Counted from the stretch's first letter, positions 11,319 to 34,074 are shown. The stretch is 36,818 nt of DNA from Bacilli bacterium (GCA_029004695.1 JAQVZB010000001.1:1-36818); one strand, 5' to 3'. Made by a program: numbers and translations. The notes: a model not told the origin generated them from the letters alone.

Positions 11319-11945
11319 GTGTTTAAAAAAATAAAAATTCTTTTATTGATAATATGTTTAATTACCTGTTTAGGGCTAATGAGTAGCACTTATTCTAGAT
11401 ATGTGGCAAGTGCTCAAAGTGATATTAATGCCCAATTTTCTAAATGGCAAATTTTAGTTGATAGCATTGATGTTACTAGCAATAGCCAATCTAGTGTCAA
11501 TATAACCCCAATAATTGAAGAAAATCAATTTATAGCTTCCGATACTGTTGCTCCATCTTCTAAAGGTTATTTTGACATCATAATTGATCCTACAAATGTC
11601 GATGTGTCATTTAATTACAATATCAATTTAAGTGTTTTAAATGAAAATATACCTGACTTGATAATAAGTAAATATGCTATATTACCAGAAAATTATATTG
11701 AAGGTGATACCCTTGAATTTATACCAATACTTAATAATAATATAACTAATTCATTACTATACAATAATAATGAAGTTGGTTTTACATTTAATCCGTTTAC
11801 GATAAGAATATATTTTGAATGGTTCGAAGGTACTAACGAAACAATGAATGATGAAGCTGATACAACTATTGGAACCCTAGCCGTTAATGAAAGTACAGTT
11901 CTTGAAATGAATGCTAATATAACATTTGAGCAAATAATAGAATAA
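11319..11945 (+). CDS. small secreted TasA/camelysin-like protein with a SipW-cognate-type signal peptide
   Basis: GTG start with a GAGGTG RBS. The hydrophobic segment ends in SSTYSRYV. The core reads APSSKGYFDIIIDP.NVDVSFNYNINL and the C-terminus IRIYFEWFEGT...DEADTTIG...NITFEQ. The architecture resembles the other small members of the cluster. Confidence 0.55.
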   Translation: MFKKIKILLLIICLITCLGLMSSTYSRYVASAQSDINAQFSKWQILVDSIDVTSNSQSSVNITPIIEENQFIASDTVAPSSKGYFDIIIDPTNVDVSFNYNINLSVLNENIPDLIISKYAILPENYIEGDTLEFIPILNNNITNSLLYNNNEVGFTFNPFTIRIYFEWFEGTNETMNDEADTTIGTLAVNESTVLEMNANITFEQIIE

Positions 11946-12004
11946 ATATATAAAATGCACTTTAGCAAAAACCTCTTTCCAAAATACAACTTAGAAATTA
12001 GTGC

Positions 12005-12040
12005 AAAAAAAGGACAGCAAATGCTGTTCTTTTAGTTTTT
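12005..12040. terminator. bidirectional intrinsic terminator between convergent genes
   Basis: An A-run is followed by GGACAGC (12012-12018), loop AAAT and GCTGTTC (12023-12029, one G-T pair), then a T-run. Confidence 0.6.
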
Positions 12041-12082
12041 TTATTAATTTATGTTTCTATCTAGTAAAAATAAAAGTCTTTT

Positions 12083-13312
12083 TTATAATCTGCTTTTATC
12101 TATTTCAATAACCGGAATAACATTGCAGGTACTTTCTTTTAAATTTCCATAGACTTTAGAATAAGTATCATCTATTTTTACCAAAGCAAATCCAGATAAT
12201 TCACCATAACTGCTTTGAGTCCAATAACAATTATTTGAAGATAAGAAATTATATTTATCATTCATAAATCTAAAGAAACCATTTTTATTTATTGTATTTG
12301 TAATTAAAGTGTTTAAACGATTATTATAATTAATATAACCTAGTACTTTATCTGAATAAGAATTAATTATTATTTGAGAATTTTTAATATCATTAGAAAT
12401 TATCTTCATTATATCTTCAACTAATAAATATCTTGTTGTAACATGCCATGAACTTACATAAGTATTAAAAATAGTAACATAATTATTATAGCTGACTTGG
12501 TCATAAGTTCTAAGGGGATTAAGTAGTAAAGTAACCTTAGTATCTCCTAAGGTGTTATTTTCATCTATTACATAAGTTTTAATACACGTATCACTTATAG
12601 TAAAACATTCATTATTATTAATTACATCAATTAATATTTCATCACCTAAATTATACCTTGGATCACTAGATGAGTCGATATCTAAATACTGTTGTGCAGA
12701 TAAACTAATTTCTACTTGGACTGATGGTAATATTTGATAATTTTCATCTTGTTGTTTTTTTAATAATTCCCCTTCTTGAAACTCATGAGCTTTATTACCC
12801 CATAAACTATCTAATTCATCATTACCAGAATCAAGAGGCCAAGACACTGCTATTTCAAATACCTCTTCAGTTCCGTTTGATAATATATAATTTTTACTTA
12901 AATTTATATTAATATTGAAAGGATACTCATGAGAAATTAAATCCTCCATATATTCTGAAGTTACTCCATTTACATCGATTTGAAAAAAATCATTAGGATC
13001 TCCTAAAATTCTTGCAGAAATAATGTCATAATTAATTTCGGCATCTGAATCTCCTAAATTTCTTAAAGTAATTAGTTCTGTTACTGGTTCCATTCCAGGA
13101 TATATTTCCGAAAGTGACATAACGACACTATTTTTTACAGCCGTACCATTTTTAGAAAGCTCAATATTCCAGGCTTTTACATTTACTTCGGTAGATACTC
13201 CTGCTATTCCACTATATGCAAACCAAGCTAATGTGGCTGAAATGAATGAGATAGCCATAAATAATAATGATACAAAATTTAATTTAAAGTATGTTTTGTG
13301 CCGTTTCTCCAT
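12083..13312 (-). CDS. secreted TasA-like protein with an extra C-terminal YW..S / PVI module
   Basis: The signal segment ends in SATLAWFAYS. LSEIYPGMEPVTELITLRNLGDSDAEINYDI parallels the TasA pattern L.PGD....F.v.N.Gsl. The jellyroll ends VQVEISLSAQQ. The C-terminal ~120 aa contain CYWTQSSYG...NVIPVIEID. Confidence 0.6.
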   Translation of the reverse strand: MEKRHKTYFKLNFVSLLFMAISFISATLAWFAYSGIAGVSTEVNVKAWNIELSKNGTAVKNSVVMSLSEIYPGMEPVTELITLRNLGDSDAEINYDIISARILGDPNDFFQIDVNGVTSEYMEDLISHEYPFNININLSKNYILSNGTEEVFEIAVSWPLDSGNDELDSLWGNKAHEFQEGELLKKQQDENYQILPSVQVEISLSAQQYLDIDSSSDPRYNLGDEILIDVINNNECFTISDTCIKTYVIDENNTLGDTKVTLLLNPLRTYDQVSYNNYVTIFNTYVSSWHVTTRYLLVEDIMKIISNDIKNSQIIINSYSDKVLGYINYNNRLNTLITNTINKNGFFRFMNDKYNFLSSNNCYWTQSSYGELSGFALVKIDDTYSKVYGNLKESTCNVIPVIEIDKSRL

Positions 13313-13346
13313 TATCAGTCACATCCCTTCATTTAATTTTTTTCAA

Positions 13347-32440: not shown

Positions 32441-32546
32441 TTTTTTCCTCTTTCCTTTTCTTATTTTTGTATATTACATTAGTTATAAATTACTTCTAAA
32501 TAGTAATATACGTATAATTCGATAACTACTACCGTAATATAATATA

Positions 32547-32588
32547 ATCTTATCATAATCTAAAACTTTGTCAATATTTTTTGTCGAA
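32547..32588 (-). promoter_or_regulatory. promoter of the 511-aa paralogue gene with an upstream TTCGACAA box
   Basis: On the minus strand: TTCGACAA (32581-32588), 6 nt, TTGACA (32569-32574), a 16-nt spacer ending in TGa, then TAAGAT (32547-32552). The leader would be about 100 nt. Confidence 0.55.
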
Positions 32589-32605
32589 TTTTGTTATTTT
32601 CAATT

Positions 32606-32634
32606 AAAAAAGATTTAAAATATAAATCTTTTTA
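32606..32634 (-). terminator. A/T-rich hairpin terminator after the 480-aa paralogue gene
   Basis: AAAAAGATTTA (32607-32617) pairs with TAAATCTTTTT (32623-32633) around a 5-nt loop. It overlaps the stop codon, and the stem is almost entirely A/T. Confidence 0.45.
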
Positions 32635-34074
32635 AACAACTGTTACTTCAATCATAATTTGTTCAGCATAATTACCGGCCCAATCACTAACATTATATGT
32701 TACATAATATACTCCCGGAACATTTGTATCAACTGGATTAATAATTTGAATCTTTCTAGTTATATCTTCAGTAATATCATTACCATCTAAATCTTCCGAA
32801 ATCTTGTCAGTTGCAGTTGCAGTAGGAACAATAAATGTTTCTCCTTGATTTATCGTTATTTCTCTTATATCAGGATCAATCGAAATTATTGGTTTCCATA
32901 CATCTATTTCAACTTCTCCAGCCTCATAATAAATTTCCGAAGCCGAAAATCTTTCTTTTGTAAATCCAAACTGAACTTCGATTTTTTTTCCAATCGAAGC
33001 ATATTCATAATTATCAATATCTTGTCCTTCAATATAAACATAAACTCTTATTTTAGTAATACTATTAGGAGCTAAAGTAAAAATTTCTAATCTATTAGTT
33101 CCAGTTTCATCTCTCATTGTATCAGTAAAATATGACATACTAGTTAATTTATTACTATATATATATCCATTATATGAAGACCCATCATATATATCGACAT
33201 TATCAGCTGATCCAATTGAACTATTTACTACATATGTTGGATATGCAGTACCATCTTGAATTAGATTACAAGAACCTGAATATGATTTAGGATTCCTTAC
33301 ATCTGAACCGATTCTTTTTTTACAGACTGTATTATACCAACTTATAGCATTTGCGTGATGATATTTATCATTAGGTTCCCAAATAGCAGCATTTCGGCAA
33401 ATACCAGTAACTTCATTTGTATCAGAACAAGTAATCGATGTTATAGTACTAGGATTAGTTGTTTTAGCAATAACTCTACCTATATGAGCAAAAGCAACTC
33501 TTACCGAATTTTCAATTCCTGTATTAGGTACCCCACTTGCAGCAACTCCAGCTTCAGAATCTATTGTTAAATAGATAGCTTCTTCATCAAGGATATTTAA
33601 ATTTTTAAAATATTGCTTCCCCGAAAAGTTTTTAATAAATACATCAAAAGCTACATAACCTTCTTGTTCTTTTACTCCAGAGTTATTTACTCTACTAGCT
33701 AGTAATCTAAAGCCTCCCGGAGTTGCTGTTAAACTAGCTTTTTCATAAAATATTAATCTTGAAGATACCTGACTAACTTCACCCATACTAGACATCGGTA
33801 TTAAACCTTTCCCTCCCCAAGAATTTGTATTTCCAGGGTAAGTTTTATCATGATTAGCCTCTGATATTATAACTTCATCTGACCATGTCTTTCCATCTAA
33901 TGATATTAATAAGCTATCAGTGGTAGCTATTTCAATATCAAAACTAGAAATATTTACAGTACGCATTCCAATATACCAGGCATATGTCGCAACCGAAATT
34001 AGCAATGTTGTTATACCAAAAATAAATACAATATGTCTAATTTTAGAGTGATTTGTTTTATCTAATTTAATCAT
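32632..34074 (-). CDS. large TasA-like paralogue (480 aa) with a C-terminal DUF5011-type Ig-like domain
   Basis: The signal ends in ISVATYAWYIGMRTVNI. It has the same blocks (LIPMSSMG, GYVAFDVFIKNFSG, GIENSVRVAFAHIGRV, IWEPND, ITKIRVYVYIEGQDIDNYEY, FGFTKERF). The C-terminus reads TATATDKISEDLDGNDIT...PGVYYVTYNVSDWAGN. AAGAGGT RBS. Confidence 0.65.
   Translation of the reverse strand: MIKLDKTNHSKIRHIVFIFGITTLLISVATYAWYIGMRTVNISSFDIEIATTDSLLISLDGKTWSDEVIISEANHDKTYPGNTNSWGGKGLIPMSSMGEVSQVSSRLIFYEKASLTATPGGFRLLASRVNNSGVKEQEGYVAFDVFIKNFSGKQYFKNLNILDEEAIYLTIDSEAGVAASGVPNTGIENSVRVAFAHIGRVIAKTTNPSTITSITCSDTNEVTGICRNAAIWEPNDKYHHANAISWYNTVCKKRIGSDVRNPKSYSGSCNLIQDGTAYPTYVVNSSIGSADNVDIYDGSSYNGYIYSNKLTSMSYFTDTMRDETGTNRLEIFTLAPNSITKIRVYVYIEGQDIDNYEYASIGKKIEVQFGFTKERFSASEIYYEAGEVEIDVWKPIISIDPDIREITINQGETFIVPTATATDKISEDLDGNDITEDITRKIQIINPVDTNVPGVYYVTYNVSDWAGNYAEQIMIEVTVV

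Follow-up and report, generated by a model that had tools for sequence, protein, structure and literature searches.

A conserved gene block of Bacilli and Clostridia that combines SipW-type signal peptidases and their predicted substrates with a McrBC-like GTPase pair

Introduction

Among the McrB-like GTPases, a large clade was named CoCoPALM by Bell et al. (eLife 2024, PMC11090510), who devoted three sentences to it. According to these authors, CoCoPALM GTPases are fused to an FtsB-homologous domain and to transmembrane (TM) and coiled-coil segments, occur in association with 'pilus assembly factors' of the signal-peptidase family and with McrC homologues that have coiled-coils, carry coiled-coils on both the McrB and the McrC homologues, and have an NxD motif followed by a second D; the clade was placed inside the NxD clade together with the CoCoNuTs, and its analysis was deferred to a 'forthcoming publication' (PMC11090510). 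A full-text literature search returned no later paper using the name CoCoPALM, and the text of the eLife supplement contains nothing on it. Here, we describe a gene block resembling these loci, which is located at positions 11319-34074 of a 36,818-bp contig from the metagenome-assembled genome (MAG) of a 'Bacilli bacterium' (GCA_029004695.1, JAQVZB010000001.1); the whole contig is referred to below as the window.

Dedicated SipW-type peptidases are also encoded by the tapA-sipW-tasA locus of Bacillus subtilis, the sipW-bsaABC locus of Clostridium perfringens and the calY loci. The block in the window shares with them such a peptidase, signal sequences ending in T-aromatic-A/x-aromatic, a combination of major and accessory subunits, and the lack of sortase and LPXTG. 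However, these loci comprise only 3-4 genes and no nucleoside triphosphatase (NTPase), whereas no mature protein of the block is detectably a Peptidase_M73 member and its major subunit (~390 amino acids, aa) has a fold unlike that of TasA. In haloarchaea, tafi are multi-subunit filaments of the TasA class (tip, adaptor, shaft and anchor) with a dedicated peptidase (PMC11821415). Together with the archaeal bundling pili (ABP; AbpA) and the cannulae (CanA), these filaments (TafA/C/E/F plus TafD) resemble the block in their multi-subunit design and in a cluster-encoded signal peptidase with extra domains; they differ from it in that no NTPase is encoded, in that tafi use Tat export, and in that the major subunit in the window shows no significant sequence or fold likeness to them.

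The genes of the block are inherited together across Bacilli and Clostridia. Nine of their products carry predicted Sec signal peptides of the SipW/TasA type with an aromatic P2' residue, and these are encoded together with two active-type peptidases, a conserved pseudo-peptidase, and a McrB-like GTPase with its McrC-like partner. A preliminary description, made from the window alone, is confirmed as an observation, with corrections, and is partly supported in its interpretation. It had taken the coupling to a nucleotide-dependent complex to be foreign to any described TasA-type system; since Bell et al. had described CoCoPALM, the association of a McrBC-like GTPase with signal peptidases is not new, and the system is of a kind that is named but uncharacterised (PMC11090510). 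Beyond what the CoCoPALM text contains, the block provides nine substrates with the SipW-type motif, two active and one dead peptidase, a fusion of a peptidase with a cytosolic domain, a major-subunit fold without a match, and distinct Bacilli and Lachnospirales variants.

Gene organization of the block

The GC content is ~24% across the window. Between positions 11319 and 34074, 16 close-packed genes (B409 to Q480) lie on the minus strand and A208 is convergent to them. The gene coordinates and the convergent gene of the preliminary description agree with this arrangement, but the number of minus-strand genes, given there as 17, is 16. The features are as follows.

A208, 11319..11945, plus strand: small secreted jelly-roll protein with the SipW-type signal SSTYS/RYV; convergent, marking one end of the block
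B409, 12083..13312, minus strand: secreted protein with the signal SATLA/WFA
C196, 13347..13937, minus strand: signal peptidase I of the SipW/Sec11 type; two TM segments, Ser/His pair intact
D378, 13952..15088, minus strand: McrC-like partner with an N-terminal DUF2357 domain and a charged helical C-terminal half
E510, 15107..16639, minus strand: membrane-anchored McrB-like AAA+ GTPase
F711, 16642..18777, minus strand: SipW-type peptidase (aa 1-170), acidic linker and conserved cytoplasmic domain of ~330 aa
G176, 18911..19441, minus strand: signal-peptidase-like membrane protein with two TM segments, catalytic residues lost
H623, 19512..21383, minus strand: secreted protein with the signal LTYTFA/KYV and a C-terminal DUF6273 part
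I180, 21399..21941, minus strand: small secreted protein with the signal GITYS/VFQ; candidate minor subunit
J1220, 21948..25610, minus strand: giant secreted protein with the signal PTLA/EFIY; candidate tip adhesin
K542, 25699..27327, minus strand: cytoplasmic helical protein of no recognised family; accessory
L54, 27329..27493, minus strand: small acidic cytoplasmic protein
M357, 27483..28556, minus strand: divergent major-subunit paralogue; candidate adaptor, initiator or terminator subunit
Hairpin, 28582..28610, minus strand: 13-bp stem between N428 and M357, found by consensus scan; possible attenuator
N428, 28672..29958, minus strand: major-subunit paralogue 1 with the signal VSTYA/WFV
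O230, 29977..30669, minus strand: anchored by an N-terminal TM segment and lacking the cleavage motif; candidate for the membrane anchor or base
P511, 30905..32440, minus strand: major-subunit paralogue 2 with a C-terminal immunoglobulin (Ig)-like PF16403 domain
Q480, 32632..34074, minus strand: first gene of the block; major-subunit paralogue 3, likewise with an Ig-like PF16403 domain at its C-terminus

All 18 proteins considered were scanned with Pfam, NCBIfam, PHROGs and PADLOC. Only for the peptidases, DUF2357 and the Ig-like tails do proteins of the carriers have a Pfam family or a name that is informative.

Obtained from consensus scans only, the three best promoter-like matches lie in the gaps before O (30735-30763), P (32574-32547) and Q (34126-34098), and are of the sigma-A type (TTGACA-17-TAAAAT with an extended -10 TG); overall, the counts of promoter-like sites are not above shuffled expectation. 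The hairpin after N428 has a tail that is not T-rich. This arrangement would suggest that the genes for the putative shaft subunits (N, P and Q; see below) are transcribed separately and highly, with read-through into the machinery genes. The N, P and Q genes (28672-34074) have a GC content of 0.29-0.35, compared with 0.19-0.28 in the rest of the window, which fits Gly/Ala/Thr-rich, highly expressed structural genes.

SipW-type signal peptides

In A, B, H, I, J, M, N, P and Q, a basic stretch is followed by a hydrophobic helix, the end of which carries one of a set of related motifs, i.e. SSTYS/RY, SATLA/WF, TYTFA/KY, ITYS/VF, PTLA/EF, STYA/WL, STYA/WF (twice) and ATYA/WY. The pattern T[YLW][AST]x[FYWL] closes the N-terminal hydrophobic helix in eight cluster proteins, the expected number being 0.013 per protein N-terminus, and H623 carries the variant TYTFAKY. 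No window protein outside the cluster contains the pattern, and the sole further match in the window is a chance one in the cytoplasmic K542, where it is not preceded by a hydrophobic helix. The motif that had been noticed in nine proteins is thus far above chance. O230 has a strong TM helix from which the motif is absent and looks like an uncleaved membrane anchor; the SipW-type substrates are therefore nine rather than ten.

The predicted cleavage sites have small residues at -3 and -1 and an aromatic residue at P2', a layout also found at the TasA site, GTWA/AF. The aromatic P2' residue has been reported to make TasA a substrate of SipW rather than of LepB (PMC10269814). The signal feature of the TasA/camelysin type (T-aromatic-A, then x-aromatic) is present in the nine proteins, in which cleavage is predicted.

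Two active-type peptidases and one pseudo-peptidase

C196 matches TIGR02228 (archaeal-type signal peptidase I) at 2e-19 with 70 bits and the SipW model at 1e-17, and the N-terminal part of F711 matches the same models at 5e-19 with 68.8 bits and at 2e-14, the cut-off of TIGR02228 being 51.85 bits. The Ser (SM) and His (TH[KR]) are kept in every C and F orthologue examined and correspond to the SM and THK motifs of C196 and to Ser63 and His99 of F711. On these motifs, both proteins are classified as Sec11/SipW Ser-His peptidases of the active type.

The peptidase part of F711 (aa 1-170) contains two TM segments. Neither the C-terminal domain of F711 nor its stand-alone homologue in the Lachnospirales locus described below (L010) had a significant family match in Pfam scans and a PDB profile search. 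In L010, the cytosolic part (329 aa) and the F peptidase (268 aa) are encoded by separate genes (14691-15680 and 17361-18167); as the two are fused in F711, this suggests that they physically interact.

G176 has the same two-TM topology as C196, and its similarity to the peptidases is weak (BLAST to C196, E 0.002; TIGR02228, E 0.03, 14 bits; SEC11C, E 0.14). Because both catalytic residues are lost in all five genomes compared, with neither the Ser nor the His position conserved, G176 can be regarded as a conserved pseudo-peptidase, and it is a candidate subunit chaperone or placeholder. Of the three SipW-type peptidases initially proposed, two are thus of the active type and the third is a conserved pseudo-enzyme. 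SipA/LepA, an inactive signal-peptidase homologue, is needed for pilus polymerisation in Streptococcus pyogenes, and G176 is likewise a conserved dead paralogue encoded amid pilus-like subunit genes. However, streptococcal pili are polymerised by sortase via LPXTG and pilin motifs, neither of which is present here, and the likeness of SipA/LepA to the cluster peptidases is at the level of the S26 fold only; the F-family profile gave no more than weak matches to structures of SipA (E 0.07) and LepA (E 0.75).

The McrBC-like pair

The family profile of E510 matches the Escherichia coli McrB structures 6hz4, 6ut6 and 7vsr at ~1e-5 (best, 9e-6) over the whole AAA+ core. The Walker A (GISGTGKT) and Walker B (IILDE) motifs are present, together with an invariant NNDD at the position of the McrB Nx(x)D motif. 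The N-terminal part consists of a TM segment (residues 60-78), basic residues and a coiled-coil-like heptad stretch (residues ~92-122, QEDLLDEINSLNNQVNKLMKEKNEIMAMKV), after which the GTPase domain begins. No DivIC/FtsB match was found in Pfam for the N-terminus, which gave only weak matches of the TM-plus-helix type. The GTPase and the C-terminal domain of F711 are predicted to be cytoplasmic because their TM segments are followed by basic residues. No other gene of the block is as conserved as that of E510 (identity, 59-78%; 8000/8000 scored candidates at E<=0.001).

D378 contains DUF2357 (PF09823; 2e-11), the N-terminal domain of McrC, which plugs into the McrB hexamer and activates it (PMC11090510). 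Searches of D378 against Pfam, NCBIfam, PADLOC and PDB profiles, including a separate Pfam scan of its C-terminal half, detected no nuclease or other family, although an inactivated PD-(D/E)xK fold may be present. These results bear out the earlier recognition of a McrB-like GTPase and its partner. Canonical McrBC and the pair have in common an AAA+ GTPase core, including the Nx(x)D motif and the Walker A and B motifs, and a gene for a DUF2357 partner that follows directly downstream. It differs from McrBC in that a TM and coiled-coil segment takes the place of the DNA-binding N-terminal domain of McrB, in that no PD-(D/E)xK nuclease was detected in D378, and in that it forms part of an operon for export and processing, with which it is inherited.

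Apart from the FtsB homology, which Pfam did not detect, the features given for CoCoPALM have counterparts in the window, i.e. a GTPase with an N-terminal TM and coiled-coil-like segment; a McrC (DUF2357) homologue with a helical or coiled-coil extension, in which a nuclease was not detected; signal-peptidase-family proteins (C, F and G) in the same operon; and an NNDD motif that reads as NxD followed by a second D, yet also as NxxD. The motif of E510 is consistent with its assignment to the NxD clade but does not prove it.

Among defence-related families, E510 matches the PADLOC defence candidate PDC-M26A at 2e-33. A tblastn search of plasmids with E510 returned only relatives of the GTPase domain, in defence-like contexts. 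No relatives of E510 were found in viral contigs (IMG/VR), and a phage origin of the gene was rejected on this ground.

Conservation of the block

In the MAG Bacillota OH_CBlB_40 (L005), all 17 genes are present in the same order, including the convergent A, at 40%-70% identity. The order is kept for the stretch from K to A on a 1.49-Mb contig (L006, GCA_942493215.1) and for that from M to A in L007 (GCA_050259235.1), and L001-L004 are partial loci with the same order. The convergent orientation of A is kept in L005, L006, L007 and L010. The last of these loci, which was reached via a distant A208 homologue (P0429, 28% identity; from a Lachnospirales MAG, seen on 833 contigs), is a compact version consisting of two major subunits and of A, the N-terminal domain of B, C, D, E (59%), a split F, G, H, I and O. 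With the window block it has 13 families in common, at 24-59% identity, whereas J, K and L are missing. A profile scan of genome contigs with the J alignment, based on narrow patterns, returned two loci.

L007 differs from the window block by an extra major-subunit paralogue with an Ig-like tail (2007-3455), which separates K from a shortened J of 756 aa, so that copy number and tip protein both vary. In L001, a Thoeris pair (ThsA-Macro and ThsB-TIR), a large helicase and a serine recombinase are encoded at 1536-7218, which lies upstream at a distance of 2.8-8.5 kb and is separated from the cluster by two unrelated genes, so that a defence island lies close to the CoCoPALM block in this genome.

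Eighty metagenome loci centred on E510 homologues (57-78% identity), human-gut assemblies among them, were also analysed, each gene being counted only where room sufficed. D lies directly downstream of the GTPase gene in 64/65 loci, C is present in all 59 and B is next to C in all 48. The corresponding figures are 38/41 for A, 47/49 for F and 36/44 for G, and K was found in 15 of the 30 loci with 10 kb upstream. Because the GTPase and its partner are nearly always flanked by each other, by the peptidase and by secreted proteins, the NTPase pair is an integral part of the block and not an insertion peculiar to the window. An inserted D-E restriction cassette was likewise rejected, given the position of D beside E in 64/65 loci and the absence of a detectable nuclease. 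The synteny on which the preliminary description was to be checked thus holds for L001-L007 and, at the level of 13 families, for L010. Its claim of a coherent, conserved system of substrates, peptidases and NTPase with partner is supported; sortase, LPXTG, type IV pilus parts and viral relatives of E510 were not found in the searches made.

Outside the block, the window contains yunB, cotJB and a cotJC-like Mn-catalase gene (3827-7916). It also encodes an RsgI-like protein and two proteins considered below, a DUF2207 protein and a P-type cation ATPase. The flanks of the block differ in each genome compared; the boundaries were therefore set at Q and A, excluding the DUF2207 gene R554 (34134-35798), which was rejected as a block member since it occurs in 0/80 metagenome loci. 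R554 encodes a membrane protein with a long Gly-rich C-terminal tail (GGGGFSSGGGGGGSFGGGGGGGGFR). On the other side, a gene for an 861-aa P-type cation (Ca2+-type) ATPase (8573-11158) adjoins the block; this adjacency is not conserved elsewhere. The ATPase may have a bearing on the conserved acidic EGxDxDxxD loops that the secreted proteins carry.

Families and folds of the secreted proteins

At the profile level, the mature domains of the secreted proteins separate into at least six mutually unrelated families, only M, N, P and Q being paralogous. When all secreted families were aligned by hhalign with and without their signal peptides, only the signal peptides and the M-N pair proved to be related. 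None of the cluster proteins matched Peptidase_M73/TasA at E<=0.1 in Pfam or NCBIfam. The family profiles of the secreted proteins found no PDB sequences beyond the Ig-like tails of P and Q; likewise, TasA was not among the PDB sequences found with the profiles of N, A, the A superfamily, K, D, F and G, to which SEC11C, SipA and LepA responded below threshold only. Alignment of each family to TasA by hhalign gave probabilities of <=3%, with a TasA sequence that was entered by hand. The 'ten TasA-like proteins' of the preliminary description are accordingly members of several unrelated families, none of them detectably Peptidase_M73, as the profile hidden Markov model check that it had proposed also indicates. 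Of the TasA/camelysin-like blocks it listed, the short motifs exist, but the link to TasA/Peptidase_M73 finds no support in the profile, profile-profile and PDB sequence searches.

The AlphaFold2 model of N428 is confident (pLDDT, the predicted score in the local distance difference test, 83.5; predicted template modelling score, 0.83). Foldseek gave no PDB match for it (best E 0.24, template modelling score <0.2) and none in BFVD. The model of A208 (pLDDT 73) is a beta-sandwich of the jelly-roll type and of TasA size. Its Foldseek matches are generic jelly-rolls, with viral capsids and carbohydrate-binding modules on top and, further down, AbpA (7ueg, E 1e-2), TasA (8aur, 2e-2) and CanA (9hdi, 2e-2). 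AbpA ranks 25th and TasA 40th (template modelling scores, 0.31/0.28), the three lying within the 25th-42nd positions at ~0.3. The fold comparison with TasA that had been suggested thus gave a jelly-roll with weak TasA, AbpA and CanA matches for A208 but no match for the major subunit. The A208 superfamily comprises 1726 representatives at E<=1e-3 in an exhaustive HMMER profile search, and 60 of its distant members contain no Pfam domain and no Peptidase_M73. Membership of the cluster subunits in the TasA family fails the test run here; that they work like TasA-class subunits is plausible.

The most conserved block of the N and A families consists of the cleavage site and the mature N-terminus (conservation, 0.95 and 0.93, respectively), and the same block is weak in the monomer models (pLDDT, 64 for N and 46 for A208). 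The modelled N-terminal strand is conserved yet of low confidence, which may lend indirect support to strand donation. The acidic EGQDxDNxD block, which together with the final strand is conserved in the major subunits, has a conservation of 0.93 and a pLDDT of 77 falling to 68; Ca2+ is used in the assembly of CanA and AbpX, which this acidic EGxDxDxxD loop recalls.

The major subunits occur as two to four tandem paralogues and share about 55-66% identity across genomes. N428, with >2000 homologues at 55-66% identity, has four conserved Cys residues in the mature part, the EGQDxDNxD block and a Pro/Thr tail, and P511 is 59% identical to it; the tails of P and Q are Ig-like (PF16403). M357 is ~26% identical to the major subunits (hhalign M-N probability, 100%) and forms its own orthologous group of 365-396 aa. 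The ectodomain of O230 ends in a W-x-EG-x-D block, as in the major subunits, and residues 174-224 match the L010 major subunit at E 0.004; the identity of O is 41-68% in all loci, and its Pfam scan gave nothing significant.

Among the remaining secreted proteins, B409 and H623 have conserved N-terminal parts (~200 and ~300 aa, respectively) and lineage-specific C-terminal parts (the ~200 aa at ~210-409 of B409, and residues ~300-623 of H623 with DUF6273), their orthologues being 203 aa long for B in L010 and 295-314 aa for H; these extensions point to modular decoration of minor subunits. Orthologues of I180 are present in L002, L003, L005, L006, L007 and L010. J1220 contains GGL[IV]G repeats and Ig-like segments.

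K542 has no TM segment and no family or PDB match; CHMP2A (ESCRT-III) was aligned to residues 214-284 at a non-significant E of 0.066. The gene is limited to Bacilli-type loci, where it always occurs together with the small acidic L54. The L54 gene overlaps the stop of M and abuts the start of K, an arrangement that represents translational coupling with its neighbours, and its orthologues (50-53 aa) occupy the same position. A protein of this location had previously been given as 46 aa long; it exists, but that length had been read from an internal Met of a 54-aa open reading frame (27329-27493).

No sortase family was matched by any cluster protein and no LPXTG-like motif occurs in the last 60 residues of any of them, which sets the block apart from sortase-dependent Gram-positive pili. 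Pfam and NCBIfam scans detected no prepilin peptidase or PilB/TadA-type ATPase of type IV pili, Tad pili or archaella, and the cluster motif sits after the hydrophobic helix, not before it as in class III signal peptides. Scans with PHROGs, PADLOC, Pfam and NCBIfam gave no phage structural match, and no SLH, CWB2, LysM or LPXTG wall-anchoring modules were found in the cluster proteins.

A model for the system and its alternatives

The explanation that we favour, with a probability of roughly 0.6, is that the block is a CoCoPALM locus building a SipW-processed surface filament, the assembly or signalling of which is coupled to the GTPase. N, P and Q would form the shaft of the cell-surface filament; they are read in this way because they are conserved tandem paralogues, with promoter-like matches before Q, P and O and a hairpin after N. 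M may act as an adaptor, I, A, B and H as minor subunits, J as an optional tip adhesin and O as the membrane base. Signal peptides would keep the precursors tethered until C or F cleaves them and releases the highly conserved N-terminal beta-strand. By donor-strand complementation of the kind known from TasA, BsaA, ABP, tafi and cannulae, this strand would then complete the fold of a neighbouring subunit, and Ca2+ may be bound by the acidic EGxDxDxxD loop. G, the dead peptidase, may hold or present precursors, as SipA/LepA does for streptococcal pili. For C. perfringens BsaA, it has been proposed that polymerisation takes place in the membrane-tethered state, before SipW cleaves (PMC11580942). 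From the cytoplasmic face, the hexamer of E, activated by D, would act via its TM/coiled-coil segment and the cytosolic domain of F and would gate, power or report assembly. This is the weakest step of the model, which does not choose among assembly, retraction and signalling.

Several points weigh against this explanation. All carriers found are uncultured MAGs, and the filament is known here from genes alone. Cleavage at the motif is a sequence prediction, and the model of the major subunit has no match to TasA, AbpA, CanA, threads or any PDB entry, so that donor-strand assembly rests on analogy and on the pattern of conservation versus pLDDT. The role of the GTPase is one that we entirely infer, and its closest sequence relatives are defence-type McrB-like NTPases; the NNDD of E510 fits both NxD[D/E] and NxxD, and FtsB homology of its N-terminus was not detected by Pfam. 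In addition, K, L and J are missing from the Lachnospirales version and are thus not core parts. A more far-reaching claim, namely that the block represents a new class of Gram-positive filament with an unmatched shaft fold, Sec11/SipW-type peptidases and a pseudo-peptidase chaperone, whose assembly, retraction or mechanosignalling a membrane-tethered, nuclease-free McrBC machine drives from the cytoplasm, is put forward only tentatively, the odds being somewhat against it. In that case, McrBC would have its first role other than restriction, and no earlier filament coupled to an NTPase would be known outside the paradigms of type IV, sortase, chaperone-usher and TasA-class structures.

A conflict or defence system with a surface sensor would account for the company of the GTPase, whose domain is closest to PDC-M26A and to plasmid-borne McrB-like ATPases. 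The McrBC-like pair would then be the effector or switch, as in the CoCoNuT relatives, and a perturbed surface structure (e.g. upon phage adsorption) would be signalled inward through the peptidase-fused cytosolic domain. The placement of CoCoPALM in the NxD clade with the CoCoNuTs (PMC11090510) and the location of the L001 block near Thoeris genes and a recombinase fit this scheme. It is nevertheless unlikely, as neither D nor the other cluster proteins yielded a nuclease match or any other effector domain, E510 has no relative in viral contigs, the flanks are mostly housekeeping genes, and the block appears to be vertically inherited and highly conserved (59-78% for E), unlike typical defence islands.

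The substrates could instead be wall, S-layer-like or matrix proteins or adhesins that make up a non-filamentous envelope layer or secreted matrix, with no strand-donation polymerisation and with the GTPase module regulating processing or expression, in the manner of the bifunctional SipW of B. subtilis. Such a layer would be in keeping with a major-subunit fold unlike that of any known pilin or TasA-class subunit, with the Ig-like surface-protein domains of P and Q, and with the several unrelated families of secreted proteins. However, the wall-anchoring modules named above (SLH, CWB2, LysM and LPXTG) were not found, the mature N-terminus is the most conserved stretch, and the set of tandem major paralogues, divergent paralogue, small minor proteins, giant tip-like protein and TM anchor mirrors pilus and tafi loci (PMC11821415), which makes this scheme improbable to a similar degree.

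A spore appendage or exosporium fibre expressed in sporulation, the alternative raised in the preliminary description on account of yunB, cotJB and cotJC lying 3-7 kb away in the window contig, and to which an Amidase_3/LysM gene and a SleB-like Hydrolase_2 gene downstream in L006 and L007 might be added, is highly improbable, since each genome has flanking genes of its own (L002, trigger factor, GreA and PBP5; L006, an ABC-F gene; L010, RelA, RecJ and glycogen synthase) so that no conserved sporulation link exists and the sporulation neighbours occur only on the window contig, the promoter-like matches before Q, P and O are of the sigma-A type, and the cluster proteins contain no Ena (DUF3992), BclA or Cot-type domains.

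Biological significance

The system is abundant in gut and digester Firmicutes and occurs in gut Lachnospirales that are very prevalent, one Lachnospirales variant being found on >800 contigs, and the block accounts for ~1.5% of a 1.5-Mb genome. Its interest lies in an unannotated system that has a shaft protein with an unmatched fold and in McrBC machinery co-opted outside restriction. On a conservative reading, the present analysis provides a parts list for a system so far only named in the literature, i.e. the substrate motif, two active and one dead peptidase, a cytosolic domain that is fused or split, and the core and accessory genes. If the GTPase is indeed coupled to filament assembly, the block would redefine the scope of McrBC-type machines. 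It would then also represent a new principle by which Gram-positive appendages are assembled, such appendages being likely to be relevant to gut colonisation and biofilms.

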